Of a stretch of DNA of 64,000 bases, positions 6,192-31,042 are shown in pieces. Position 1 is the stretch's first letter, and every line of letters begins with the position of its first letter. Position numbers and translations under genes: made by a program. The notes below the pieces were generated by a model that saw nothing but the letters and a program-made list of their open reading frames with translations, was not told the DNA's origin and made no database searches. Source of the stretch: an uncultured delta proteobacterium (GTDB taxonomy: Bacteria > Desulfobacterota > RBG-13-43-22); the NCBI GenBank assembly GCA_963743305.1, contig CAVUPH010000014.1, positions 160,001 through 224,000 on the forward strand. Direction: 5' to 3'.

Positions 6192-6920
6192 ATGTTGAGT
6201 GATCGGGAAGTCCAACGGTACGACCGCCAAATCATGCTTCAGGGGTTTGGGATCGAAGGACAGGAAAAATTAAAAAAAAGCCGCGTGCTGGTAGCCGGCG
6301 TGGGCGGGTTAGGTTCCCCGGCGGCCATCTATTTAGCGGCGGCCGGGATAGGATCATTGCGTCTGGTAGATCGGGATCAAGTGGAACTGAGCAATTTGAA
6401 TCGCCAAATCCTTCATTGGGAAGAGGACTTGGGCCGCTATAAGGTGGAATCCGCCCGGAGGAAGCTATCCGGACTCAACCCGGAAGTGGCGATCGAGATT
6501 GTTCAGGAGGATATCCGGGAAGATAACCTTTCCGACTTGATGGCTGGATGCGACCTGATCGTCGACGGACTGGATAATTTCTCGACCCGCTATCTCATCA
6601 ATCGATTTATCCAGAAAAATGGCCTGCCCTTTATTTATGGGGGCATCCTGGGGATGATGGGCATGGCCACATTCATCTGGCCGGGGCGAACACCCTGTCT
6701 GAAATGCCTCTTCCCCCAAGCCCCTGAACCTAAAAAATTCCCGGTACTGGGCACCACTCCCGGAATCATTGGACTGATTGAAGCCAACGAGGCGATCAAA
6801 TATCTGGTGGGCCTGGGTAAGCTATTGACCGGGAGGCTTTTGGTTTACAATGGCCAGGAGCTGCGTTTTTCCGAGGTGCCGATCGACCGAAACCCGGAGT
6901 GCCCGGCCTGTGCGGCTTAG
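6192..6920 (+). CDS. MoeB/ThiF/HesA-family adenylyltransferase
   Basis: RYDRQI, GVGGLG, SNLNRQ, DGLDN, CLKC and CPAC zinc motifs. Confidence 0.9.
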   Translation: MLSDREVQRYDRQIMLQGFGIEGQEKLKKSRVLVAGVGGLGSPAAIYLAAAGIGSLRLVDRDQVELSNLNRQILHWEEDLGRYKVESARRKLSGLNPEVAIEIVQEDIREDNLSDLMAGCDLIVDGLDNFSTRYLINRFIQKNGLPFIYGGILGMMGMATFIWPGRTPCLKCLFPQAPEPKKFPVLGTTPGIIGLIEANEAIKYLVGLGKLLTGRLLVYNGQELRFSEVPIDRNPECPACAA

Positions 6921-6939
6921 TTTTCCTAAGGGAATACCC

Positions 6940-7626
6940 ATGACCGATCCTATAAAAATAAATCCCCTGTTCAGTGGGTTGGATGAGGAGGGTTTGCTCC
7001 GTATCAAAGAAATTTCCGGCCGCCGGGAGATAAAGAAAGGGGAAAGTCTCTTCAGCCAAGGAGAGGAGGCTCAAGGTTTTTATCTGGTCCTGCAGGGACG
7101 AATAAAAATTTATCGTTTGTCTCCCCAGGGGAAAGAGTATGTCTTGCGGATCGTCGGCCCTGGAGAAACGTTGGCAGAAGCGGCTGTTTTTTCAGGAAAA
7201 ACATATCCAGCCTCAGCCGATTCTCTGGAGGACAGCCGACTTTATTATTTTAGAAAGAGTGACTTCGTTCACCTCATCCGACAGGACCCCCAATTGGCCC
7301 TGAATATGATTTCCGGCCTCTCCCTCCTGCTTCGGAATCTGGCCCAGCAGGTGGAGGACCTTTCCCTGCATGAGGTCTCCTCCCGTCTGGCCCGTTATCT
7401 ACTGGATCAAGCCGATAAAAAGAATATCCCCTTGATTGACGGAGTCCAAATTCCGCTCGAAGTGAAAAAAAATCTGCTGGCCAGCCGATTGGGGACTATT
7501 GGAGAGACCCTTTCCAGGACATTGGCCAAAATGAAACAGCGGGGACTTCTGGAGATCAAAAAAGATGCCGTTATCATTCAGAACCTTGAGCTGCTAAAAG
7601 AGGTTGCCGAGGGGTTCAAATTATAA
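6940..7626 (+). CDS. Crp/Fnr-family regulator (HcpR/Dnr-like)
   Basis: cNMP-type domain LFSQGE...GETLAE; HTH LASRLGTIGETLSR; no N-terminal Cys cluster. Confidence 0.85.
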   Translation: MTDPIKINPLFSGLDEEGLLRIKEISGRREIKKGESLFSQGEEAQGFYLVLQGRIKIYRLSPQGKEYVLRIVGPGETLAEAAVFSGKTYPASADSLEDSRLYYFRKSDFVHLIRQDPQLALNMISGLSLLLRNLAQQVEDLSLHEVSSRLARYLLDQADKKNIPLIDGVQIPLEVKKNLLASRLGTIGETLSRTLAKMKQRGLLEIKKDAVIIQNLELLKEVAEGFKL

Positions 7627-7651
7627 TACAGTTTTTATCAGGAGGTTGATT

Positions 7652-8575
7652 TTGGATTTGATTTTTTTAGGAACGGGATCGGCTTGGGGGGTACCCGAAC
7701 TAGGTTGCCCCTGCCGGATTTGTCAAAAGATGCGGTCCCTCCAGGAAGAACGGACCCGGAGCGCCTTTTTGCTTTCAGGCCGAGAAACCCTGCTCTTGGA
7801 TTGCGGGCCGGATATACGCCGGCAGTTGGCGAACTGGCCCCTAGATCGATTGGATGCCATCCTCATCAGCCATGAACACGCCGACCATTACTTCGGGCTG
7901 GATGAGCTCTTGGCTTTCCGCCGCCGACTCCCCCGGGAGAAATGGCGGCCCATCCCGACTTACGCCACCAAGGCTTCCTGGACCTCCATCAAAAAAACCT
8001 TCGGTTATTTGCTGGACTCGCTGCTGGAACCGAGGATCGCCAACCCGGGAGAACGGTTGGCGGGCCTGGCCACGGAGGTCTATCCCTTTAAAACCTTTCA
8101 TGGCGAATCAGCCCCCGGGTCAGTCGGTTATATCGTCGAAGAAACCGGTTCCGGAAACCATCACAAACTGGTGTACACTTCGGACTTTTTCGATTTGCCG
8201 AAGGAGGAACCCCGAGTAACGGACCCGGACATTTTGATTCTGCAATGCCATTGGCTTAACGAGCCGGTGATCAACCGGCCTCATCAAATGAGCCTGGAGC
8301 GGGGGATTGAATTTGTCAAATTATGGAAACCCCGGAGAGCGGTTTATTTGGTTCATCTTTCGGAGGCCTACCCGATTGACGGCGACCCCGCCAATGACGC
8401 CCTGAAGAAAGTGGCCGCCCGGAAGCCGAAGCGGGACCCGCAAACCGACCTGCCCTATCCCCTTCCGAGCTGTCAGGGGGAATGGCAGGAGGTGGCCGGC
8501 CGGCTTTTCAGCAACGAAGGACTTGACGTCCCGGTCATCGTTCCCCGGGATGGGCTCAAGGTAACCCTCTGGTAA
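7652..8575 (+). CDS. Metallo-beta-lactamase-fold hydrolase (PhnP/YcfL-like)
   Basis: FLGTG...GVP..GCPC..C, LLDCGPD, SHEHADH; GGAGG before TTG start. Confidence 0.8.
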   Translation: MDLIFLGTGSAWGVPELGCPCRICQKMRSLQEERTRSAFLLSGRETLLLDCGPDIRRQLANWPLDRLDAILISHEHADHYFGLDELLAFRRRLPREKWRPIPTYATKASWTSIKKTFGYLLDSLLEPRIANPGERLAGLATEVYPFKTFHGESAPGSVGYIVEETGSGNHHKLVYTSDFFDLPKEEPRVTDPDILILQCHWLNEPVINRPHQMSLERGIEFVKLWKPRRAVYLVHLSEAYPIDGDPANDALKKVAARKPKRDPQTDLPYPLPSCQGEWQEVAGRLFSNEGLDVPVIVPRDGLKVTLW

Positions 8576-16826: not shown

Positions 16827-17874
16827 ATGAAATCATTTGAAACCAATTATCTCGAAAAACATCCCTTGCCGCATTCGCTGTTACGAACTATCCGATTGTT
16901 GGGTGAATATCGCGGAAAGGAATCGCTTTTTAAACAGCAGACACCCCAAGTACTCGAATCCTTGCGCCAGGCGGCCATGATCCAGAGCACCGAATCCTCC
17001 AACCGTATCGAGGGGATCGAAGCCCCGGCCGAAAGAATCAAGAAAATCGTGGAGCAAAAGACCACGCCCAAGAATCGTTCCGAACAGGAGATCGCCGGAT
17101 ATCGTGATGCACTGGCGACGATTCACGCCAACTACCCCAACATGCCCTTTACCCCAGGCCTTGTCCTTCAACTCCACCGCGATCTTTATCAGTTCGTGGC
17201 CCAGCAGGGCGGACGCTGGAAAATGACGGACAATGAGATTTCCGAAACCCGCGCCGACGGCACAAAGGTTACCCGGTTCAGACCGATTCCCGCTCATCAA
17301 ACGCCCGAGGCCATGGATAGGCTCCATACCCTTTTTAAGGAACAATGGGACCGGGAAGAAATCGATCCACTGCTGCTGATCCCTGCCTACGTGCTCGATT
17401 TCCTCTGCATCCATCCATTCACCGATGGTAACGGGAGGATGGCGCGGCTGCTGACTCTGCTTCTCCTCTATCAAGCCGGTTTTGAAGTTGGCCGTTACAT
17501 CAGTTTGGAACATCTGATCGAGAACCAGCGGGAAGGGTACTACGAGGCCCTCTATAAATCTTCTCAGGGGTGGCACGATGGCGAACATTCATTACTGCCC
17601 TGGTGGGAATATTTTCTGGGTGTTATGCTCCAGGGCGCCTACCATGAATTCGAGCGCCGAACCGGTGAACTGACCACCGCTCATGGGGCCAAGCGGGAGA
17701 GGATCATCGATCGTTATATCGCGGTTGTCGGACAAATTTCAGGTGGCAGACATCGAACGGGCCTGTCCGGGCGTCAGCCGCCCGACTATCAATCGCGCCC
17801 TTCGAGATCTTCGCCAGGCGGGTAAAATCACTTGCCTTAAAGGAGGTCGAGACGCCGTTTGGCAGAAAACGTGA
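16827..17874 (+). CDS. Fic-domain protein with C-terminal HTH (frameshift near 17715)
   Basis: HPFTDGNGRMAR active site, SNRIEG inhibitory motif; HTH IERACPGVSRPTINRAL in the shifted frame. Confidence 0.88.
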
Positions 17875-19307: not shown

Positions 19308-19713
19308 TTTTTGTGAATTACTCTCTACAATTCACACTAACTATATATTATCCTAGCTGATTTCACTTATTTTTTTGATTCCCCCTTGAATACAATATTA
19401 CTAGTCACTATTTGAGGGCATTATGCGGTTTCGGTCGACCCATTTCTTTAAATTCATCAGATTGACCCTATTCGAGGGAACTGGCTGGCCTATATAGCCG
19501 CCTTTGAAGCCGTCTGGGCTTCTATGGCCCGGCCGAACTACCTTGGGAAAAAATAGGGTACATGACCAGAGAACCCAAAGCCCGGTATGAAAATAGAAAC
19601 CACAAGTCAACGAATATAGGATGTCCCGGATTACGGAATCTCCACCCCAGGAGCTCCCGAGAGCTATTGTGGAGTATGTCCAGAAGTTAGATATTTGATC
19701 GGTATATGTAAAA

Positions 19714-20507
19714 ATGAGAAAACCATTGTCTAAGTATAATAATGAGGCTGCTAATTCAACTGGAACGAAGGCTCAAACTCGCACCGTTGGTTCTGAACGA
19801 ATCAGGAACTGGCCCACAAAGGAACGCCCGCGCGAACGACTCCTTGCCGAAGGCCCGGAACGGCTGACGGATGCCGATCTGCTCGCAATCATTCTTCGCG
19901 TCGGATCAGGAACATTCAAGGAAGGTGTTCCCGGGACGAACGCCTACGAGTCTGCCCTCTCGATTCTGAAGGATTTTCGAGGACTTCGCGGGCTCGACCG
20001 CGCCCGCATTCATGACCTGCTGAAGGTGCCCGGCCTTGGGCCTGCGAAAGTCGCTCAGATCAAGGCGGCATTTGAGCTCGGGAAACGCGTGTGCGCCGGG
20101 AAACTCACAGCACCCGCCTTCGAATCCTCTCTGGCCGTTGCCAACCATTTCCGTCCGCGTTTCACCGGCAAGCGTCAGGAGATCGTGATCGCCGTGTTCT
20201 TGAACGGACAGAACCAGCGCCTTGGCGAGAAGGACATCACCGAAGGGACGCCGACCCAAGCCACCGTGTATGTCCGCCGCATTCTGGAAGAAGCCCTCCA
20301 CGAATCGGCCGCGGCGGTCGTCCTGGTCCACAACCACCCCTCGGGCAATCCTGAACCCTCCGCCGGCGACGACGAGACAACGCGCGACCTCTTGCGTGCC
20401 TGCAAACTGGTGGGCTTGGTCCTGCTCGATCACGTGATTGTCGGCGAGATCTGACCATTACAGTTACTGCCGACTCCGGTCGGCTTAAGGAACTTGAGAA
20501 CGAATAG
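19714..20507 (+). CDS. radC: RadC/UPF0758 JAB-domain protein (indels in the last ~15 codons)
   Basis: ERPRERL, HhH GLGPAK, HNHPSGNPEPS..D, LLDHVIVG. Confidence 0.9.
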
Positions 20508-20518
20508 AAGGAGGCCGT

Positions 20519-22793
20519 ATGGCCAAGAAACAACCAGCACCGCAACCCTACGCCAAACCGGATCAGATCCAGATCCGCGGCAACCAGATATTCAGCCCCC
20601 TTCGCCAGAAGTGGGTTGCACTGACGCCCGAGGAACGAGTGCGCCAGGAGTATCTGCGTCGTTCTGATCGAAGAGTATGGGTATTCACCCGGATCAGATT
20701 GACGAGGAGAGTGCCGGTAACAGGCCGCGGTCAGCGCAGATGCCCGCGCCGACTTCCTGATCTGGCGCACACCCGAAGCCAAACAAAGACAGGAACACGC
20801 CTTGATTGTGATTGAATGCAAGGCCGACAACGTGACCATCTCCTTGAAGGACTACGCGCAGGGCGCCAACTATGCGCAGTACGAACATGCGCGGTTCTTT
20901 GTCACCCATAACCACCGCGAGACCAAGTACTGGAAAGTGGATGACACCCGGCGGATGCCGAACTACGATGAGATTGCGAACATTCCCCATGCCGACGCAA
21001 CAGACAAGGACATCAACGAGTTACTGGCACGCCTGAAGGTTTTCAAGGAGGACGAATTCGCGAAGCTGCTCCACGAGTGCCACAACGTCATCCGCAATCG
21101 CGAGAAGCTCGACCCCGCCGCCGCCTTTGACGAAATCGCCAAGATTCTCTTTGTGAAGGTCTATGTCGAACGGGAGCTTCGAGGCCAAACGCTCGCGGAA
21201 GAACCTCTTTACCGTCGAGTATCTTGACGACCAACTTGGCAAGCACCCGCTCAACACGCTCTTTGGACAAACCAAGGAGGCCTACACGGATGACAAGATT
21301 TTTGAGAGCGATGAGGAAATCCGCCTCAAACCCGCCACGGGTCGGGAAATCGTCAAGTTGCTGGAACGCTACAATCTTTCCGATACCAGCGAGGATATCA
21401 AGGGCATTGCCTTCGAGCGCTTTCTCGGCCGCACCTTCCGGGGCGAGATTGGGCAATTCTTCACCCCGCGCACCATCGTCGAGTTCATGATTCGCATGGT
21501 GGAGCCCAAGGAGGGGGACGTGATTTGCGACCCCGCCAGCGGTTCCGGGGGGTTCCTGATCCGTTTCTTCGAGATCGTGCGGCAGCAGATTTTGGCCGAC
21601 GCCGACCGCCAGTACCAGGAATTCAAGACCAAGGTGGAGGCCGACAAGAAGCTCTCGCCGGACAAGAAGGCGACCATGCTCCGGGAGAAGTTTGACGCCA
21701 TCCAGGCAACCCTCGACCACGACAAACCCGGCTCGCGCCTGTGGAAGCTGGCCAATCGCTGCATCTTCGGCACCGACGCCAACGACCGCATGGCCCGCAC
21801 CAGCAAGATGAACATGATCATGCACGGCGACGGCCACGGCGGCGTGCATCACCATGACGGATTCCTGAACGTCAACGGCATCTTCGAAGGCCGCTTCGAC
21901 ATCGTCCTCACCAATCCGCCCTTCGGCGCGAACGTCGAGCCTTCCGACGTGGTGCATGAATCCGATGTGACGGTGAGCCGCGAGGCCGAGAAACGCTATA
22001 CCGAAGAGTACGGCGACCTCTACACGGAAGCCCTGGCCCGCGTTCGCGCCGCCGTGGGCAAGCCCATCGCCAGCCTCTTCGAACTGCCCAAAGGCAACGG
22101 CACCGAAAAGGAACGCGACAAACGGGCCAAGTCGGCCAAGATCAAAACCGAAATCCTTTTCATCGAACGCTGTCTTTCCCTGTTGAAGCCCGGCGGGCGG
22201 CTCGGCATCGTCCTGCCCGAAGGCATCTTCAACAATCCCTCCCTCGCCTACGTGCGCGAGTTCTGCGAAAACCGCGCCTTCATCCGGGCCGTGGTCAGCC
22301 TGCCCCAGGAGACCTTCTTTTCCTCCGGCGCGAGCGTGAAGGCATCGCTGCTTGTTCCTGCAAAAGTTCACCGAGAAGGAGCAGGCCGATTTCGACGCCA
22401 AGCAGGCCGAAGCCAACGCCGAGGTGAAGGCGAAGCATGCCGACGCCATCGCGACGGAGACCGCACGGCTTGAGGCGGCGATAGCGGCAGCCAAGGAAGC
22501 GCGGGATACCGAGAAGCGAAAGACACTGCAAAAGGAATTGGCCGACTATGAGAAGCGGATGGCCGAGACCATCGCCAAAGAAACCCGCGCTTTGCTCAAA
22601 GAGAGATTTCCCTATCCCATCTTTCTCTACGAAGCGGAGAAGGTGGGCATCACCGCCACGGGCGAACAGGACCAGAACGAGCTGGTTCCCAACGACAACC
22701 AGCCGCCGGGCATCACGAAGACGTGCCTGGAGCTTTATCAGGAGTTCCGGCGCAACCCCAAGCCGTTCTTTCTGACGGAGGCAAAGGCGATGA
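20519..22793 (+). CDS. Fused restriction endonuclease (HsdR_N-like) - N6-adenine methyltransferase (Type IIB/IIG-like), several frameshifts
   Basis: TPEERVRQ, ADF...IVIECK nuclease motif, GQFFTPR, DPASGSGGF, NPPF, GIVLPEG spread over ORFs 20519/20802/21163/22352; AAGGAGG RBS. Confidence 0.85.
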
Positions 22794-24193
22794 CGACGGC
22801 CCCCACGACGCTCCCGCGCCTTTGCTGTTTGGTGGAAGGATTTGGACCGTTGGGATTCCATCCAGCTTCTATCTGAGCCAGTCGCTTGGCCGAAGGGTAT
22901 GGGACGCGTGTTCGGAGTCGGTACGCTGGTCACGGCAAGTAAGCGAACGTGTCAAAGCCGAATTCACCGATAAAGAATACAAAATGGCGGGCGTCAGTTG
23001 ATATGGCGAAGGTGTTTTCCACCGCGAAACGGTACGCGGTGATGCTATGAGCGCCAACCAGGTGACATCGCTGATTGCCAAGATCTGATTTACAAGCGAG
23101 GCTGTAGGCATTCGCCTGGAAGGTATCGAATTCGCTGTGACCACCCGAGCTTCGCGGTTACTGTCAGTCTCGAACGAGTTTCAAGCAGTTTATCCCGGAC
23201 GCACTCCTACCAGAATATCTGTCTAAGTTCTGCACTCGTCAAGCGACGATCGTGCTGTAGCGCTGCATCGACAGGTCGTCTGCCGTAAGCCGCAATCGTT
23301 TCAAGGAAGAGGATTTCTCGAATTCGAACATATTCCACTTCCTCCGCTGGCCGAGCAAAAGGCCATCGTCGCACGCTGGCACAAGGCGCAAGACGAAATC
23401 GCCGCCGCCCGTGAACGTGTGGAAAAGCGAAAAGCAGCGATTGATGTCCGGTTCTTCGCCGACTTGGGCTTGCGGTCGCCCGCACAAGGTTCCATGCCCA
23501 AAGCCTTTGCCGTTTGGTGGCAGGATTTTCTCCGTTGGGGGGTCGGTTTCAACTACCTTTACCAGAGCGGTGCCGACCTGACGCGAGGCAAGTATCCAGT
23601 TGTCGACCTGGGCTCGCTCCTCGAACTGGTTCAATACGGAACAAGCGAAAAGGCGAATACGAACAATGACGGCGTGGCCGTAATTCGCATGAACAACATT
23701 CTTGATGGCGAACTCGACCTCGGAAATCTCAAGCATCTAAGACTTTCCAAGAATGAGATGGATAAATTGCTCTTGAAGGATGGCGACATCCTTTTTAACC
23801 GCACGAACAGCAAAGAACTTGTCGGAAAATGTGCCGTGTTTCACGCTCAAGGGGAATACGTCTTCGCTTCCTACCTCATTCGTATTCGAGCGGATTCCTC
23901 CAAAGCTAATCCCGATTTCTTAGCCTATGTCATTAACTCTCCAATCGGTCGGCAACAAATCAACGCGCTCAGTCGGCAGATTATCGGGCAGGCCAACATC
24001 AACAGCGTTGAACTGCGCGGCCTGCAAATCCCGCTCCCACCGCTGAGCTGTGCAAAAGCAAATCATGGAACGTGTGGCGGCGGGCCGCGAAGAAATCGCC
24101 CGCGAGCGAGAAGCCGCTGACCGCCTCGCCCGCGAAATCAACGCCGAAATCGAAGCCCTGATCTTAGGCACGAAGAAGGTGAGTGAGCTATGA
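22790..24193 (+). CDS. hsdS: Restriction-modification specificity subunit (HsdS-like), several frameshifts
   Basis: IPLPPLAEQKAIV and IPLPPL..QK.I repeats, QYGTS, GDILFNRTNSKELVGK, GQANIN; GGAGG RBS and ATGA overlaps. Confidence 0.8.
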
Positions 24194-25746
24194 GCCGTGG
24201 ACGACAGAAAGATCTCATTCGAAGGTCTTCTTGCAGGAGAACGTCCTCGGAACTTTTAAGGTGATACGCGGTTTTGCTGACCTGCGTGATCTCACCGAGG
24301 TTTCTGTAGCAATGCCTTACCAGGGCGGCATGAATGGTCCGGGCACCGGCTATCAGAGACAATTCGATGAGCAGCATGTTGAAGATATTAAAAGGTTTCT
24401 CAGTAAGGGCCGCTACCGATTCTTCCCCGAGATAGTCCTCAGCCTCCGGAGCCAAGGGGCAACTGATCCTGTCGTTTCGTATGCCAAGAAGAGATCGTCA
24501 CCAAATGACAAAACCTACGGGATTTCCGTGGGGCTCAAAGCACTAAGCGAGGATGGCTTCACGAGGATTCACAGGATTGACGGTAACCACCGTCTGGAGG
24601 CAGCTAAGCGCTGTTAAAAGAGCAGAAGGCGTCTGCTTCTTTCAAGGATTTCACCAAAGCCCCATTCTGCTTTGTCGTCTTGGACTCGGATAGGCCGGAG
24701 GATGACGAGTTGGCCGAAGCCATGCTTTTTAACCTGATTAACAGTAAAGCCCTGCCTATCGCTTCGGAGCATAGTCTTTCGGTCTTGATGCGCGATGACG
24801 GTGCCGCCGCCGAACGATTTGTTGAGGACCCTCAAGTTTATCTGGCGCGTTGGATAACGGCAAAGTCAAAGACTGGCCCCATGGTTTCTACACCGCAATG
24901 GGCGACAACCCCTTGTCTCGCTTGCATTCCACGGCAGGCGTGCTGCTTCGCCCAGGTGGGATATCAAAGTCTACCCAGCAGAACATGGAAACCGAAGCAG
25001 GGCGACTTTTCGACCCACTGTATGATCTGGCCGTGAGGTTCCGCGACCACCATGAGAAATTTGTGCATTCTTATGCATTCCTGCCTATCGCAGCCGAGGT
25101 CTATGCCCGCCACTCGAAAGTCGATTCTGCAAAAGGGGCAAATACAGAAGCGGAACGGCTCCGTCGAGCGGAACGCTGGCTTCGAGACTTCGCCCGCTGG
25201 TTTGATAACGTCGGAGGTGCAGACATGCCTTTGCCAGCCGATCCCTCCGTCCTTTGGACCATTTTCAAGCGTGATTTCGACAAACGAGCGGGGAAGGTCT
25301 TCGTTGCTATGTCATTTAGTAACGAACGGGATCTTCAGGATGTAGGAACGGCCATTGATGAGGCGCTTGATCAATTCAACATGGAACATCCAAACACACC
25401 ACTCGCGCCAAGGCGTGCGGATAAACAAAAAGGCGCGAGTTATGAAATTCCGGCCTGGATATTCTCAGAAATTGATCAGAGCCGGTTAATTATTGCAGAC
25501 CTGACCGATGAGAGGCCGAACGTTTACTGTGAAGTAGGCTACGCTAAGTCAAAAGGAATCCCATTTATCCTGACCTTCCATAAACGGACGCCCACCGACA
25601 AACCACCGTGGGAACGGGAATCATCACCGGGCAACAAAGTTCATTTTGACCTAACACCCTATCGTTATATTGCATATGAGACCGCATTCGACCTGAGAGA
25701 TAAGCTAAAACAGGAACTTGACGCTTTTGTTGGGCGAGCATTATAA
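24190..25746 (+). CDS. DGQHR/DndB-like (ParB/Srx-fold) domain fused to a nucleoside 2-deoxyribosyltransferase/TIR-like domain (frameshifted)
   Basis: YQR..., FFPEIVL, IDGNHRL, LFNLINSKA in ORFs 24183/24680; FVAMSF, RAD, IIADLT..RPNVYCEVGYA in ORF 24850. Confidence 0.7.
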
Positions 25747-25793
25747 AGACCTTATTTTGTTGAATCGAAACAAGTTTAAAATCTGGCTTTATT

Positions 25794-27452
25794 ATGAATG
25801 AACGAATACAACAGCTCCAACATTGGATGCAAACGAGAGAAGGGGAGCATCTTGAATTCAAAGAGGCCAAACAACGTTATGATTTTGAAGAGTTGGTAAA
25901 ATATGGAGTCGCTCTGGCCAATGAGGGTGGTGGCCGAATAATTCTAGGGGTGACCGATAAACCGCCTCGTCGAATCGTTGGCACCCGGGCTTTTGAAAAC
26001 CTGGAACGGACCAAAGCCGGTCTTATCGAGCGGTTACATCTACGAATTGATGTCGAAGAAATTATTGATCCCGAAGGGCGGGTTTTGGTCTTTCATATCC
26101 CTTCGAGGCCTATTGGAATGCCTATTCACTATGAGGGGCGATACTTTATGCGGGCCGGAGAAGGATTAGCGGCCATGTTACCGGATATGCTAAAACGGAT
26201 TTTCGACGAAGCCGGTCCGGATTATACGGCCGAGATCTGCCCCAAAGCCGGGATAAATGATTTGGAACCGAGGGCAGTTGATGAATTCCGTCAACGGTGG
26301 ATTTTTAAATCAAAAAATGAAAAATTGCGGTCTCTTCCGGCTGAGCAACTACTAATCGATTCTGAGTTGCTGAACAGGGAGGGTTTGACTTATGCCGCAT
26401 TAATCCTTTTAGGAAGTCGAGAAGCTCTGGGATACTTTTTACCCCAGGGGGAGGTTATCTTCGAGTATCGGTCCAGTGATGCCACTGGACCGGCCCAACA
26501 ACGCCAGGAGTTTCGGCAGGGTTTTTTTTCTTTTTATGACGAATTGTGGAACCTAATCAATCTTAGGAATGATCAGCAACACTTCCAGGATGGCCTTTTT
26601 ATTTGGGACATCCCCACCTTCAACGAAGCGGCTGTCAGGGAAGCCCTCCTCAATGCCGTTAGTCACCGTGATTACCGCATGGCGGGGTCCGTCTTTATAC
26701 GCCAATATCCTCGCCGTCTAGAGATAGTCAGCCCGGGCGGCCTTCCGCCAGGAATTACCCCGGACAATATCCTCTGGGAACAATCACCCCGTAATCGTCG
26801 GATCGCCGAAACGCTCGCCCGATGCGGACTGGTGGAAAGATCCGGTCAGGGAATGAACCGGATTTTCGAAGTCTGCATTCGGGAAAGCAAACCCAGACCG
26901 GATTTCACCCATACAGATGCCTATCATGTCTGGTTGACTCTTCACGGGGAGGTCCAGCATCCGGAATTCCTGCGCTTTCTGGAAAAACTGGGTCAAGAAC
27001 GCCTGGAGTCCTTCACCACTCAAGACCTTCTGGTTATAGACCAGGTATTTCGGGACGAACCCATCCCCGATGGGATTAAAGGAAATCTTTCCAGGCTGGT
27101 CGAAATAGGAATTATTGAAAAGATCAGCCGGGGGCGGGGGACCCGCCACATTTTATCCCGCCAGTTTTATGATTTTATAGGAAAGAGAGGCGCTTATACC
27201 CGAAAAAAAGGCTTGGATCGGGAGACCAACAAAGCCCTTTTGATTAAACATATCCAAGATAGCCGGGCCATCGGTTCCAGAATGGAAGAATTTCGGCAAG
27301 TTTTGCCCAGTCATTCGCGCAATCAGATTCAAGTCCTTCTGCGAGAATTGGTTAAGGATGGACAAATTCATATCCATGGTAAGACCCAGGCAGCCCCGCT
27401 GGTTTCCAGGACCTCTGAAGACGGATTGCAACCATTAGAGGGGAAGGAATAA
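25794..27452 (+). CDS. AlbA_2/Schlafen + HATPase_c_4 (RecG C-terminal-like) + HTH protein
   Basis: EGEHLEFKEA, ALANEGGG.IILGV.D, REALLNAVSHRDY, SPGGLP, PRNRRIAE, ERSGQG. Confidence 0.85.
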   Translation: MNERIQQLQHWMQTREGEHLEFKEAKQRYDFEELVKYGVALANEGGGRIILGVTDKPPRRIVGTRAFENLERTKAGLIERLHLRIDVEEIIDPEGRVLVFHIPSRPIGMPIHYEGRYFMRAGEGLAAMLPDMLKRIFDEAGPDYTAEICPKAGINDLEPRAVDEFRQRWIFKSKNEKLRSLPAEQLLIDSELLNREGLTYAALILLGSREALGYFLPQGEVIFEYRSSDATGPAQQRQEFRQGFFSFYDELWNLINLRNDQQHFQDGLFIWDIPTFNEAAVREALLNAVSHRDYRMAGSVFIRQYPRRLEIVSPGGLPPGITPDNILWEQSPRNRRIAETLARCGLVERSGQGMNRIFEVCIRESKPRPDFTHTDAYHVWLTLHGEVQHPEFLRFLEKLGQERLESFTTQDLLVIDQVFRDEPIPDGIKGNLSRLVEIGIIEKISRGRGTRHILSRQFYDFIGKRGAYTRKKGLDRETNKALLIKHIQDSRAIGSRMEEFRQVLPSHSRNQIQVLLRELVKDGQIHIHGKTQAAPLVSRTSEDGLQPLEGKE

Positions 27453-27598
27453 TCTTTTTTGCGAAGGGCTTGGTTGGTTTTTTTTAACCGATCTAATTTA
27501 TAAGATTATTCGGCTTATTGGGATTGCAACTTTTATTTGGGTTTGGTTGTAATTTAGTAGCAATCATGGTTGCAATCACGGGGTGGCTAGGAATCCTC

Positions 27599-27830
27599 AT
27601 GAAATTTCTCCACACCGCAGACTGGCAGTTGAGCATAAAGGCCGCCCAGGTGGGCGGGGCCGGGGAGTGGGTCCGCGCCGAGGGGATCAAAATAGCGGAG
27701 CGGATCGTCCGACTGGCCCGGGATCAGGCCGTGGATTTTATCCCCCTGGCCGGCGGCACCTTCGAGGACAACGCGGTGGAGCGGGTCTTGATTCAGCAGA
27801 CGGCCGATCTGCTGGGGAACCCCTTGGGGG
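27599..27830 (+). pseudogene. N-terminal fragment of an SbcD/Mre11-type metallophosphoesterase
   Basis: MKFLHTADWQL, AVDFI.LAGG(D)TFE; similarity lost after about 75 aa; GNHD motif absent. Confidence 0.7.
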
Positions 27831-28052
27831 GCTTTTATCCAGCTCTTCTGAGGTTTAAAATGGATCAGAATAGGATCGGGTCATGTCAAGAGAAGTCCGG
27901 GGCGGATTGGAGCGGTGTAGGACCAGATCAAGCAAGCTCTTCTCCGGCGAATTCGACCGGGCGCCAGCCAGTCACTTAGGGGTAACCGAGGAAGATCTTG
28001 ACGGAATAAACAGAATTAGATTTGGTCCAAGATGCCGGAAAGTGATAGAAGA

Positions 28053-28784
28053 ATGGATATTAAAAGAATTGATCTGTTGTTAAAATATATCTTGGCGGCG
28101 GCGGGGCAGGAAGATCCCGGCCACCACGAGGTGGGACCTATTCACCTGATCAAATACGTTTACCTGGCCGATCTGATTTATGCTGAAAAACACGGGGGGG
28201 AAACCTTCACCGGTGCCCCTTGGCGGTTCCACCATTTCGGCCCCTGGTCACCGGAAGTCTATAACCGAATTGAGCCGGTTATAACCGAAGTCCGGGCCCG
28301 GGTGAGAGAGATCCCGTCGTCAAAGGCGAAAGAGGATATAATCCGGTATTCCCTGGTTGATGAGTCCCTGTTCAGCCAACTTGAGCCGGAACTTCCCTTC
28401 GTACTGGCAGTTTTCCTAAAAGGAGTGATTCATAAGTTCGGGGATGACACTACCAGTCTTCTCCATCACGTATACCGCACCTCACCCATGCTGGGAGCCG
28501 CGCCCGGCGAGCCACTTTCCTTCAAAAAAGAAACCTTCGATGAAGGAGACCAACCCAAGGTTGCCGGCCAGGTTTCCGATGTTGTGGAACTCTACCAAAC
28601 CACTTCAACAAAAAAAAGAAAGGCGGATATGAAGGCCCTTAAAGAGCAAATCCAGCTCAAGCTGGCGGAAAAGAGGTTAAAAAAGGAACAAACCATTCCG
28701 TCAAGGCCTCCCCGTTATGATGAAGTCTTTTTTGAAGGGGTGAGATGGTCTGGACAGTCTGGCGGGGGAACCGGTTCAGCATAG
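28053..28784 (+). CDS. Panacea/SocA (DUF4065) domain protein, C-terminus frameshifted or truncated
   Basis: HLIKYVYLAD...TGAPW...HFGPWSPEVY; LLHHVY...PM. Confidence 0.75.
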   Translation: MDIKRIDLLLKYILAAAGQEDPGHHEVGPIHLIKYVYLADLIYAEKHGGETFTGAPWRFHHFGPWSPEVYNRIEPVITEVRARVREIPSSKAKEDIIRYSLVDESLFSQLEPELPFVLAVFLKGVIHKFGDDTTSLLHHVYRTSPMLGAAPGEPLSFKKETFDEGDQPKVAGQVSDVVELYQTTSTKKRKADMKALKEQIQLKLAEKRLKKEQTIPSRPPRYDEVFFEGVRWSGQSGGGTGSA

Positions 28785-30007: not shown

Positions 30008-31042
30008 ATGGATATGAAAAACTCAAAACCGACCAATGAACAATGGACCGCCCTGTATGAAGCCGCCGCGGCTTTTAAGCAAACCGCCCCCTGGAAATGG
30101 ATGTACGACAGCGAGCTCTTCGGCGTGCAGGACCCGGAAAGCGGGGAGGTGGGTTACTGCTGTGTTCTAGGCAGCCTGGGGGAAGTGCTGGGATTGAATG
30201 TTTATCTGGGGGCTCGGGGATTGAGCAGTTATCTGGAGATGTATGAAGCGGAGCATCCTGAAAAAGATCCTGATATGCCCTATAAACAGGACCTCCTGGT
30301 GGCCCATTTCGATGACCGGTCCTTTATGGAACCCGAGGATTTGAAGCGGGTCAAGGTCCTGGGGTATTCCTTCAAAGGTAAAAAAGCCTGGCCCTGGTTT
30401 CGAAGATACGAACCGGGGTTCTATCCAAGGCAAATTAATGAATCCGAAGTGGTCTTTCTAACGCAGGCCTTGATGCAAGCCATTGAAATGGCCAAACGAT
30501 TGAAAGAGAATCCAGCCATGTTGGAAAAAGCCGGGAACCAAGTCTGTCTGGTCCGGGTTCCGTCGATCCAGGAAGAACAGATAACCTGGGAAGACGTTTG
30601 GCAAGAGATTCCTTTGCTTAAACCGGCGGCCATCCAAGTCCCGCCGGTTGATGAACTACGCCTGAAAAAATTAAAGAAGGAAGTTCGTCGCCTTGGAGGG
30701 GTTTGGGAAGGGGATTATTTTTTCAGTCCGGCGGTAATTCAAGAAGGGGGACGACCCTATTATCCGCAAACCGTCCTCTGGGTTCACCAGGAATCCGGCC
30801 AGATCCTGGCCGGGGAATTTTTCCCTCATCAGGGGTTCGAAAAGGCCTTTCAAGATCATTTTATGACCCTGATCGAGAAACTGGATGCGGTCCCTCAGGA
30901 AATCCAGGTTAAGAGGATCGAGGTGTTACAGTTGCTGCAGCCGGTCATTGACTATTTGAAAATATCCGCAGCATTAAAGAAAAATCTTCCTGGTTTGGAG
31001 GAAGCCCGCCGGGCGATGGAGGAATTTTTAAGACGGAAATAG
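30008..31042 (+). CDS. Conserved hypothetical protein
   Basis: 344-aa ORF with W..LY.AA..FK..APW.WM motif; function not recognised. Confidence 0.75.
   Translation: MDMKNSKPTNEQWTALYEAAAAFKQTAPWKWMYDSELFGVQDPESGEVGYCCVLGSLGEVLGLNVYLGARGLSSYLEMYEAEHPEKDPDMPYKQDLLVAHFDDRSFMEPEDLKRVKVLGYSFKGKKAWPWFRRYEPGFYPRQINESEVVFLTQALMQAIEMAKRLKENPAMLEKAGNQVCLVRVPSIQEEQITWEDVWQEIPLLKPAAIQVPPVDELRLKKLKKEVRRLGGVWEGDYFFSPAVIQEGGRPYYPQTVLWVHQESGQILAGEFFPHQGFEKAFQDHFMTLIEKLDAVPQEIQVKRIEVLQLLQPVIDYLKISAALKKNLPGLEEARRAMEEFLRRK

Follow-up and report, generated by a model that had tools for sequence, protein, structure and literature searches.

A conserved gene joining a ParB/DndB-like domain to a nucleotide N-glycosidase-like domain, a candidate accessory effector behind a nuclease-methyltransferase and specificity pair

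Domains of the DGQHR type are recognized by a QR pair, a D-G-Q-H-R pentapeptide and an FxxxN motif (PMC4619093). A role in regulating dnd expression has been ascribed to DndB (PMC4507180), which has also been called a "potential negative regulator of restriction" (PMC3632139), and DGQHR/COG1479 genes are reported as passengers of type I restriction-modification (R-M) loci (PMC3632139). GmrSD/DUF262-type enzymes are likewise reported to be frequent in R-M loci (PMC4619093, PMC3632139). In the retron Ec86 (Eco1), an effector resembling nucleoside deoxyribosyltransferases (NDTs) takes part in anti-phage defence and is described as inactive until triggered (bioRxiv 10.1101/2023.08.16.553469), and an NDT domain has been predicted to act on DNA in the manner of a ricin-type toxin (PMC3710099). 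Among systems related to the partner genes considered here, BsaXI has the composition (RM)2S (PMC11997821), and MADS comprises eight genes in one operon, ATPase-nuclease modules among them (PMC13662399).

We analysed a 64,000-nucleotide stretch of an uncultured delta proteobacterium, referred to below as the window. In it a gene, X, whose product appears to combine a DGQHR/DndB-type domain with an NDT-type domain, follows a nuclease-methyltransferase gene (M) and a specificity gene (S).

The fusion gene as it stands in the window

X runs from 24190 to 25746 on the forward strand, as delimited by full-length homology to intact 518-aa proteins. The window copy aligns end to end with such proteins (~518 aa) at 87–92% identity and is interrupted by four 1-nt indels. 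With one intact homolog of 518 aa (P0001) as tblastn query, residues 14–140 fall at 24231–24611 in frame 3 (92% identity), residues 141–230 at 24611–24880 in frame 2 (87%) and residues 225–518 at 24862–25743 in frame 1 (90%); residues 1–7 lie in frame 1 after the ATG at 24190, and residues 8–13 in frame 2. Reading X as one protein takes four 1-nt corrections, two for insertions (near 24211 and 24232) and two for deletions (near 24612 and 24862), and meets zero in-frame stops. The initial annotation had joined three open reading frame pieces, after indel correction, into one protein of roughly 520 aa. The single protein stands (109 of the 120 listed homologs measure 490–530 aa), whereas the joining proves to need four corrections, not two, and to involve two tiny N-terminal pieces besides the three large ones. 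The motifs that it quoted are all found in the window (GYQRQF, FFPEIVL, RIDGNHRL, MLFNLINSK, VFVAMSF, RRAD and IADLTDERPNVYCEVGYA), and the start of X does overlap the end of the S frame in an ATGA at 24190–24193 (ATG at 24190, TGA at 24191–24193).

The two genes upstream are also disrupted. M, located on the forward strand at approximately 20500 to 22876, is split over at least four frames by at least three breaks. S, at approximately 22786 to 24193 on the same strand, has at least four breaks, one of which lies at 24048; its first TRD is badly fragmented, and a stop interrupts the frame near 23224. As written, the cassette is non-functional, whether through recent pseudogenization or through errors concentrated in this part of the assembly; because the window copy is broken, the function of X in the source organism is not readable.

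We give even chances to an intact cassette in the organism, with breaks that arose as errors of assembly or consensus in an island that varies between strains. Every break seen, of about 12 over 20400–25800, is a 1-nt indel, mostly an insertion, and related contigs have one base fewer at 20467, 20507, 20659, 21182, 22352 and 24048. The freedom of X from in-frame stops points the same way, as does a divergence by codon position like that of intact pairs (p(pos1+2) 0.06–0.075 vs p(pos3) 0.24–0.31). Several M/S relatives of ~90–95% identity co-occur in metagenome runs, by which a consensus can be confused. A true pseudogene is the alternative, and is favoured by the long intact open reading frames found elsewhere in the window and genome (one of them an hsdR of 1017 aa), by the position of the breaks outside homopolymers, by the one in-frame stop in S and by the frequency of truncated or deleted cassettes in other genomes. 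No sequencing run with this exact sequence was found, the best containing 15% of the words, and in the four metagenome runs compared, M/S relatives were covered while X had at most trace depth. Programmed frameshifting was rejected, as the breaks are spread across three genes and no homolog has them. In a scan of open reading frame coverage across the genome, the cassette lay at the 39th percentile and was not singled out.

Domains of the fusion protein

Profile matches and invariant residues place a DGQHR/DndB-type ParB-fold domain at residues ~14–225 (24231 to 24870, forward strand), and the frame break near 24612 falls inside it. Residues Q55, R56, D130-G-N-H-R134, F180 and N184 are invariant in all 54 locus proteins and present in the window copy, where the QR pair lies at about 24354–24359 (computed from the tblastn alignment, and approximate), the pentapeptide at 24579–24593 and FxxxN within MLFNLINSK. 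Every X member has N for the pentapeptide's Q (DGNHR). These motifs and the profiles together bear out the DGQHR/ParB-type N-terminal domain of the initial annotation.

Intact homologs match TIGR03187 (DGQHR) at 1e-9 to 1e-7, and the close relatives reach 32–38 bits against a curated cut-off of 58.85. For Pfam DndB (PF14072), the window pieces match at 2.8e-4, below the gathering score, and close relatives score 16–23 bits against a cut-off of 29.1, while divergent members of the fusion family exceed it (P0219 at 47.5, P0178 at 42.2, P0149 at 36.3 and P0152 at 31.6 bits); 40 of 57 aligned members match at E≤0.01. Scores against DpdB (NF041060) and DGQHR_dnd_1 are 12–20 bits (cut-off 300) and 12–17 bits (cut-off 450), and the DpdB matches of this domain, though weak, recur (1.4e-5 to 1e-6 in PADLOC, 3e-4 in NCBIfam). 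A profile search of the X alignment against PDB sequences returned no ParB or DndB-type chain, and whole-model fold searches were filled by the C-terminal domain. The ParB fold is thus a sequence-profile assignment, to which weak but consistent matches point.

A region predicted to be all-helical follows (residues ~226–365; 24865 to 25284, forward strand), delimited by the secondary structure of the predicted model and by conservation. Within it F334 is nearly invariant and W337 invariant, and it was assigned to no protein family.

The C-terminal domain (residues 366–518; 25285 to 25743, forward strand) resembles N-glycosidases of the NDT/DNPH1/MilB fold in fold matches, alignment and conservation. 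An AlphaFold model of X (pLDDT 83) suggests the flavodoxin-like NDT fold for this domain, and the top fold matches of the model include MilB and DNPH1, in entries titled for MilB with hmCMP and DNPH1 with hmdUMP. The putative nucleophile, Glu448 (codon 25531–25533), is matched in the alignment by the Glu in "AFEVG" of Trypanosoma brucei NDT (2a0k), which we take to be the nucleophile of that enzyme. E448 is invariant in 57 of 57 aligned members and in 54 of 54 locus proteins, as are N444 and G450 in the latter set. The initial annotation's NDT/Rcl-type C-terminus, with the Glu of its E.GYA motif at the NDT nucleophile position, is therefore upheld, and the fold matches agree. Profile support is again spread around the thresholds: the window pieces match Pfam Nuc_deoxyrib_tr at 1.1e-3, below the gathering score; four close relatives reach 17–24 bits against a PF05014 gathering score of 28.8; 43 of 57 aligned members match the family at E≤0.01; and the search of the X alignment against PDB sequences gave two weak NDT matches (E 0.07 and 0.7).

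The first strand of DNPH1 carries a glycine-rich phosphate loop and that of NDTs a GPFF-type motif. In X this strand reads VFIAMSF, unlike either, and for this reason the substrate is not readable from sequence. The same NDT-like domain occurs elsewhere fused to TIR_2, P-loop kinase, REC, HEAT and SLOG domains. X also matches the C-terminal part (positions ~250–370) of PDLC00733, a PADLOC model named "Effector" and described as "TIR", at 1e-6 to 3e-10.

Partner genes, linkage and distribution

M belongs to a family of proteins ~750 aa long that are predicted to join an HSDR_N_2 PD-(D/E)xK nuclease to an N6-adenine methyltransferase; both HSDR_N_2 and N6_Mtase/Eco57I were found in seven of seven M proteins checked. 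Of 62 M proteins compared, 61 retain each residue of the nuclease motif D...ExK (D103, E124, K126), and 61 or 62 retain each residue of the methyltransferase NPPF. RM.BsaXI is the best PDB sequence match of M (1.6e-28). The best NCBIfam match is MAD2, at 293–301 bits against a cut-off of 720 and over positions ~3–577 of 654, and MAD5 scores 59 bits against 400, while PADLOC assigns M to its "MTase_I" model. S matches the Methylase_S family and has two TRDs. A canonical HsdR lies within three genes in one of 69 loci (L040), and helicase-type genes were found by tblastn in five of 80 loci and not in the window. Judged by gene content, the M-S-X locus does not qualify as classical type I, for a canonical HsdR is almost never linked to the pair. 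Its predicted composition is instead that of type IIB, with a PD-(D/E)xK nuclease and gamma-type N6A methyltransferase in one polypeptide and a separate S. More generally, pairs of an HSDR_N_2-methyltransferase and S that PADLOC labels "MTase_I" mostly had no linked HsdR in the loci examined.

X is tied closely to this pair. Genes of the M/S clusters occur within the four same-strand genes upstream of X in 67 of 69 loci, and in the remaining two X stands at a contig start; in 38 of the 69 it overlaps the preceding gene by four nucleotides (−4, ATGA-type). The initial annotation's coupling to an R-M operon is hence near-universal, with the qualification that the partner is a nuclease-methyltransferase fusion and S without HsdR, not a classical type I system. 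In all 67 informative loci, which span many phyla, full-length X stood with M-S, whereas M-S also occurs without X; the genetic dependence is thus strictly one-way, of X on the pair. The phylum offers nine informative regions with M, of which two have a complete X, three a remnant and four none. Since pairs without X exist, X is dispensable for restriction-modification itself, which fits a regulator as much as an effector. Pairwise distances of X and M correlate over 54 loci (r=0.68, Mantel p=0.001), a relation confounded by shared host phylogeny.

Other genes are inserted between S and X in a few loci (Hypoth_Ymh in four, HsdR in one, a zeta-like kinase in one). Neighbours of defence type include Mrr-like PDC-S02, McrBC, GmrSD (beside the cassette in three loci), AbiG, TIR, SMODS, NACHT and ABC-3C genes. 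No dnd or dpd genes occur within three genes on either side in the annotated loci, and their annotated neighbours include no OLD-type ATPase/Toprim and no second ATPase-nuclease module. In the window, an intact RadC-like JAB gene (19714 to 20454, forward strand) precedes the cassette, and close relatives also have one at position −3. No tRNA genes were found between 11000 and 36000, and promoter and terminator scans over 19400–26200 were near chance. Two genes that occupy the position of X in loci lacking it, of 448 aa (L108) and 417 aa (L107), showed no similarity to X by hhalign.

We found 163 homologs of X at E≤1e-3, and in contigs representing one genome per species (GTDB representatives), 534 of 599 pattern-matching stretches encode an X relative, again in many phyla. 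Carriers in culture include Asticcacaulis sp. YBE204 (L027), Novosphingobium mangrovi (L038) and Cnuella takakiae (L055). The collection of homologs that the initial annotation had proposed thus yielded intact single proteins of ~520 aa linked to R-M genes. Its remark that the architecture was not recognised as a named system also agrees with our searches: seven fusion-family members compared with PADLOC-DB 2.0.0 matched only the generic "Effector/TIR" model and, weakly, DpdB, with no system-specific match, and the literature searched held no paper combining DndB and deoxyribosyltransferase. Phage records gave no match, and plasmid records gave one, which looks like a deletion product. X is a widespread, unstudied fusion of a ParB/DndB-like domain and a nucleotide-glycosidase domain and, because it constantly stands behind an unusual R-M gene pair, probably an uncharacterised add-on to that system of phage defence. 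Strictly conserved, phylogenetically broad (534 loci) and absent from the catalogues and literature searched, the cassette is a candidate undescribed defence module, in which a ParB-like/N-glycosidase fusion is genetically tied to one kind of nuclease-methyltransferase and S pair.

Candidate role and described systems

We tentatively favour, at somewhat less than even confidence, the reading that M-S-X is a conserved cassette of three genes, broken in the window, and that the third gene encodes a nucleotide N-glycosidase which serves as an accessory effector, depends on the R-M pair and is gated by NTP or DNA. M and S would on their own make a complete restriction-modification enzyme, type IIB-like and (RM)2S in composition, and X would act only together with it. 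ParB, DndB and DpdB relatives bind NTP and/or DNA and dimerise, and the ParB-like domain of X may do the same. Dimerisation would bring two NDT domains together, as active sites of the NDT family are built across a dimer. The paired domains might then cleave the N-glycosidic bonds of nucleotides, be it dNMP/dNTP, phage-type modified nucleotides or NAD, and so starve or abort an infection that the nuclease alone fails to stop. The proposals of the initial annotation, a nucleotide-sensing switch over a nucleotide- or NAD-cleaving effector and a PrrC-like guard of the R-M complex, are likewise tentative. If X is such an effector, it would represent a new backup or extension of R-M enzymes that works by removal of nucleotides or bases and not by cutting DNA, and NDT-like effectors, known from retrons and from the PADLOC "Effector" model, would gain a third setting.

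Some of the same features would suit a DndB-like regulator that sits at or near the cassette DNA and tunes expression or the balance of restriction and methylation, its NDT-like domain serving as a nucleotide sensor. The N-terminal domain is of DndB/DGQHR type, published roles of DndB are the control of dnd expression and a potential negative regulation of restriction (PMC4507180, PMC3632139), and X is translationally coupled at the end of an operon whose M-S pair can do without it. Control of the DndB type would then reach beyond phosphorothioation to systems based on methylation. We nevertheless consider it unlikely, in that the nucleophile-position Glu and the surrounding N-V-x-x-E-x-G are invariant in 54 of 54 proteins and persist in very distant members, which argues for catalysis by the C-terminal domain; the same domain is joined to effector-type partners elsewhere, and a Pfam scan of four close homologs (E≤1) detected no HTH and no other DNA-binding family. 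X could also be a mere passenger of the R-M operon, serving abortive infection or a type IV-like function by itself and with no physical or functional link to M-S, a possibility we rate lower than that of a regulator. Unrelated genes do occupy the same place in some loci (the Hypoth_Ymh, HsdR and zeta-like kinase insertions above), and DGQHR/COG1479 genes set a precedent in type I loci (PMC3632139). A free rider, however, would be expected beside varied R-M types, whereas full-length X kept to one M-S type in all informative loci; the four-nucleotide overlaps and the correlated distances of X and M also speak against it.

Between these two in probability, and likewise improbable, is an action of X on DNA itself. 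An NTP-gated, ParB-like domain would load onto DNA that RM-S marks as unmethylated, or onto phage DNA whose bases are modified, and there the NDT domain would remove or exchange bases, either as a restriction glycosylase or as a one-protein counterpart of the base-exchanging pair DpdA/DpdB. The weak but repeated DpdB matches are in keeping with this, as are MilB (hmCMP) and DNPH1 (hmdUMP) among the top fold matches, the published prediction of ricin-like NDT action on DNA (PMC3710099) and the frequent presence, as direct neighbours, of type IV enzymes that target modified DNA (Mrr-like, McrBC, GmrSD). The similarity to MilB and DNPH1, however, reflects a shared fold and not substrate specificity, and a second DNA-damaging activity is not required where M already has an intact nuclease motif. 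Moreover, we know of no NDT-family member that acts on polymeric DNA. The fuller version, in which X serves a methylation-guided system as its DNA-directed effector and an NTP-gated, ParB-like clamp delivers the N-glycosidase either to DNA recognised by RM-S as foreign or to hypermodified phage DNA, for excision or exchange of bases, seems to us the least probable of all. Were the DNA-directed reading true, X would be the first NDT-family enzyme on polymeric DNA, and a restriction-glycosylase or DpdAB-like base-swap arm on a type IIB-like enzyme.

With the DGQHR/DndB family (TIGR03187, PF14072) X shares the QR, DG(N)HR and FxxxN motifs and HMM matches. It differs from DndB and DpdB proper in equivalog scores far below the cut-offs and in loci without dnd or dpd genes (three genes either side, annotated loci), and X has at its C-terminus an NDT-like domain that is not part of the 338-position DndB model of Pfam, which X matches over positions ~38–122. 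To NDT, DNPH1 (Rcl) and MilB it is linked by the IADLT...N-V-Y-x-E-x-G-Y-A strand-loop-helix, aligned to the NDT nucleophile region, yet sequence identity is ~15%, the first strand is VFIAMSF and the domain is fused behind a ParB-like and helical module of 365 aa. An NDT-like catalytic domain is common to X and, as that effector has been described, to retron Ec86 (Eco1), and PDLC00733 shares the C-terminal NDT-like part. Their partner is a reverse transcriptase with msDNA or a cyclase, whereas that of X is an R-M pair and its regulatory domain is of ParB/DGQHR type. GmrSD/DUF262-type proteins, as described, also place a ParB-fold DGQ(Q/H)R domain N-terminal to a catalytic effector domain (PMC4619093, PMC3632139), which in their case is an HNH nuclease and in X an N-glycosidase-fold domain; Pfam scans of X family members gave no GmrSD_N match. 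MAD2 and MAD5 of MADS are related to the partner genes, but scores are far below the cut-offs and the ATPase-nuclease modules were unseen among annotated neighbours. Among the type IIB enzymes BcgI and BsaXI, the pairing of a nuclease-methyltransferase fusion with a separate, two-TRD S, as in M-S, has been reported for BsaXI. To our knowledge no third gene has been described for either of them, whereas the M-S cassette has X.

Architecture and family of the fusion gene

The gene X, a DGQHR/DndB-like and NDT-like fusion at 24190-25746 (+), is not represented by a single open reading frame in the window. The ORF list gives one piece of 144 aa (24183-24617, +) and another of 298 aa (24850-25746, +); the interval between them is open in a third frame. 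A tblastn search with P0001, the best intact homolog (518 aa; its residue numbers are used throughout), recovered three collinear stretches in three frames of the + strand, covering residues 14-140 (24231-24611), 141-230 (24611-24880) and 225-518 (24862-25743); residues 1-13 start with the ATG at 24190 and occupy two more short frame segments. Judged from these alignments, the window copy is a full-length homolog broken by four single-base indels, with one base inserted near each of 24211 and 24232 and one deleted near each of 24612 and 24862; no internal stop appears when the frames are followed. The initial annotation had also joined the pieces into one protein whose start overlaps the stop of S, the upstream specificity subunit gene. 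Both points hold, the ATG of X overlapping the TGA of the last S frame as ATGA at 24190-24193, but the damage was understated: X carries four indels, and S and the preceding gene M are broken too.

A word-based search with the first X piece, limited to longer proteins, returned 163 homologs at E<=1e-3, the best of them 84-91% identical to that piece. Among the matches listed, 109 of 120 measured 490-530 aa, and 17 bore the JGI name "nucleoside 2-deoxyribosyltransferase", the others being "hypothetical protein" or nameless. The C-terminal piece gave 1155 matches at E<=1e-3 (13 at E<=1e-30) among 1.84 billion cluster representatives. Intact homologs match Pfam DndB (residues ~52-148) and Nuc_deoxyrib_tr (~381-467), both under the gathering score, and the NCBIfam DGQHR domain TIGR03187 (1e-9 to 1e-7) under its cut-off, with mere traces of DpdB and DGQHR_dnd_1. 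At E<=0.01, DndB was found in 40 and Nuc_deoxyrib_tr in 43 of the 57 aligned family members, and four divergent members passed the Pfam DndB cut-off.

X combines two domains, and catalytic-type residues are conserved in both. Thirteen positions are invariant in the 57-sequence alignment (D130, G131, N132, H133, F180, N184, K186, W337, F371, N444, V445, E448 and G450), as are Q55, R56, DGNHR, F180, N184, N444, E448 and G450 in 54 locus-translated proteins. DGQHR domains are characterized by a QR pair, DGQHR and FxxxN, according to PMC4619093; the invariant residues of X cover all three motifs, with N replacing the Q of DGQHR. These motifs, and the scores of divergent members, place X in the DGQHR domain family at the sequence level, as had been proposed for its N-terminal half. 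An AlphaFold2 model of P0001 (mean pLDDT 83.4, with the 57-sequence alignment as input) predicts an N-terminal domain of mixed alpha/beta type, a middle region (~190-365) made up of helices alone and a Rossmann-like C-terminal domain (366-518). In Foldseek searches against the PDB, the last matched MilB, DNPH1/Rcl and NDTs (E about 4e-4, target TM 0.6-0.75). A profile search of PDB sequences aligned E448 with the Glu of "AFEVG" in T. brucei NDT, which we take to be the nucleophile. The predicted fold and nucleophile position thus assign the C domain to the NDT superfamily, and "NDT/DNPH1-like" is therefore a better label than the "TIR-like" of the initial annotation, a more distant likeness.

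The NDT-like domain is a modular unit. A further 105 matches of the C-terminal-piece search included seven proteins that join it to DndB-type domains and three that join it to guanylate-kinase-like P-loop domains; SLOG, HEAT-repeat, TIR_2 and receiver domains were other fusion partners. The PADLOC model PDLC00733, which bears the name "Effector" and the description "TIR", is also matched by this domain, at positions ~250-370. Four loci (L014, L066, L067 and L107) keep X only as its DGQHR N-terminal ~200 residues (~1-205/226). A further 150-300 residues, without a tblastn match to X, follow in the open frames of L066 and L067 and may represent either a different C-terminal module or decay.

Linkage to a nuclease-methyltransferase/specificity pair

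Scanning one genome per species in GTDB gave 599 pattern matches, 534 of which encoded an X relative. The best 80 loci were retained, and 69 were analysed once 10 that matched only in part and one lacking an intact ORF had been removed. A single BLAST cluster lies directly upstream of X on the same strand in 67 of the 69 loci; in the two exceptions X starts within 430 nt of the contig start. Cluster members of both 590-850 aa and 380-590 aa occur in 52/69 loci, and the start of X lies 4 nt inside the preceding gene in 38/69. The smaller protein, S, is Methylase_S. The larger, M, carries HSDR_N_2 and N6_Mtase/Eco57I in all seven representatives; in an alignment of 62 M proteins, D103, E124 and K126 of the D...ExK motif were each kept in 61 and the NPPF residues in 61 or 62. 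M is therefore a nuclease-methyltransferase fusion retaining both active sites. A canonical HsdR occurs within three genes of X in one locus only (L040), and three helicase-type queries had matches in 5/80 loci and none in the window. X takes an obligatory place behind a nuclease-methyltransferase/S pair without HsdR, in a defence-island setting. The proposed coupling to restriction-modification holds, but the initial annotation mislabelled the partner system.

The dependence is one-way, as the M-S pair occurs without X, which is dispensable for it. An M homolog (E<=1e-40) was present in 13 of 401 genomes of the phylum; in nine informative M regions X was complete in two, absent in four and an N-terminal remnant in three (residues 1-205, 1-36 and 1-26). 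Full-length X was found in two genomes besides the window's among 61 relatives and was absent from three other same-genus genomes searched. This patchy distribution fits a mobile accessory gene. X and M pairwise distances correlate (r=0.68, Mantel p=0.001, 54 loci), which fits joint inheritance, with shared host phylogeny contributing. No X was found in 50,697 phage records. One plasmid record carries it (L113, Leisingera thetidis NZ_CP109788.1): the C-terminal part of a CDS annotated "N-6 DNA methylase" (328057-330300) corresponds to X residues 127-513, the apparent outcome of a deletion that took out S and joined M to X.

Frame damage in the window copy

Alignment to the proteins of L001, the closest locus, places M at ~20500 to 22876 (+, in four frames) and S at ~22786 to 24193 (+). 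Contigs of ~90%-identical relatives, from four public metagenome runs, have one base fewer at 20467, 20507, 20659, 21182, 22352 and 24048, coinciding with frame changes in the window. In S, all three frames carry parts of the first target-recognition domain (22786-23230), and there is an in-frame stop near 23224. Roughly a dozen breaks fall within 5.3 kb. RadC upstream of M (19714-20454, +; also before M in close relatives), the Schlafen/AlbA_2-HATPase_c_4 gene downstream of X (25794-27452, +), and most window genes are intact, as is an hsdR located in another part of the genome (open frame of 1017 aa); the damage is therefore local.

The breaks may be an assembly artefact. They are solely 1-nt indels, mostly insertions; X has no stop; several close relatives were found together in metagenomes; and codon-position divergence between the window X and intact relatives (p 0.06-0.075 at positions 1+2, 0.24-0.31 at position 3) is indistinguishable from that of intact-intact pairs. 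The three genes may instead be pseudogenes, as indels lie outside homopolymers, S has an in-frame stop, and cassettes with truncations or internal deletions are frequent in other genomes. The run search found no sequencing run with exactly this sequence. The family-level finding merits experimental work, for which the window copy is unsuited.

Defence setting, proposed function and known systems

Neighbours of X are typical of defence islands. Mrr-like genes occur in nine loci. In seven (L002, L022, L023, L027, L029, L073 and L078) a ~300-350-aa Mrr_cat protein lies directly downstream of X on the same strand, suggesting a four-gene cassette variant; the two scanned, from L002 and L022, match PADLOC candidate PDC-S02 (about 1e-134). 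McrBC is present in two loci and GmrSD near X in three, and further neighbours include AbiG, TIR_2, SMODS, DUF4062-NACHT and ABC-3C genes. A ~250-aa Hypoth_Ymh gene, Ymh being listed as a HEPN family (HEPN paper), lies between S and X in L025, L050, L060 and L065; the L025 copy weakly matches PADLOC PD-Lambda-3_B. In the X-less M-S locus L108, the place immediately after S is taken by a 448-aa ORF (6339-7685, -) that has neither a Pfam family nor any similarity to X.

In the window, upstream of RadC where GC content is lower (0.46-0.50), there is an intact Fic-domain gene (16827-17825, +; PADLOC SoFic 1.4e-36), which probably belongs to the same defence/mobile island. The Schlafen/AlbA_2 gene directly behind X encodes 552 aa and weakly matches PADLOC Argonaute-associated PNTD models; a similar gene is at +2 in L061. 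A 153-aa ORF of no family (27518-27979, +) and a SocA/Panacea antitoxin-like gene (28032-28784, +; Pfam 3.6e-5, slightly under cut-off) may form a toxin-antitoxin pair. A DUF7309-DUF6930 protein (30008-31042, +; 1e-58 and 6e-31) lies on the far side of the island.

The reading we favour, at a little short of even confidence, is that X is an R-M-dependent accessory effector acting as an N-glycosidase on nucleotides or NAD. By analogy with BsaXI, an (RM)2S enzyme (PMC11997821), the M-S pair would be a type IIB-like (RM)2S enzyme with X as its accessory effector. The ParB-like domain of X would sense NTP and/or DNA, and its dimerisation would assemble the NDT-type active site; in NDT-family enzymes this site spans two subunits of a dimer, as set out in the account of retron Ec86, whose NDT-like effector depletes adenine derivatives (bioRxiv 10.1101/2023.08.16.553469). 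Once assembled, X would split nucleotides or NAD at the N-glycosidic bond. A 2013 study predicted that NDT domains joined to Abi N-terminal domains are toxins (PMC3710099). It is unlikely that X is a DndB-like regulator, slightly less probable that it acts on DNA as a glycosylase or base-exchange enzyme in the manner of DpdA/DpdB, and least probable that it is an independent passenger gene. The initial annotation was right in substance in its observation and plausible in its interpretation of function.

No system-specific PADLOC 2.0 model matches X, in keeping with the initial annotation, which did not recognise the architecture as a named system. We found no description of a DGQHR-NDT fusion in the article texts searched; supplementary tables of comparative-genomics papers (e.g., PMC3632139) may list such neighbourhoods. 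The nearest named relatives of M are the PADLOC "MTase_I" model PDLC03018 (3.5e-226), RM.BsaXI (1.6e-28) and MAD2 of the methylation-associated defence system (MADS), for which M scores 293-301 bits over most of the model against a cut-off of 720. X is neither DndB nor DpdB, and the cassette is not MADS and differs from a classical type I system in being without HsdR; X is best described as an R-M-linked fusion of a ParB-like domain to a putative effector domain of NDT type.
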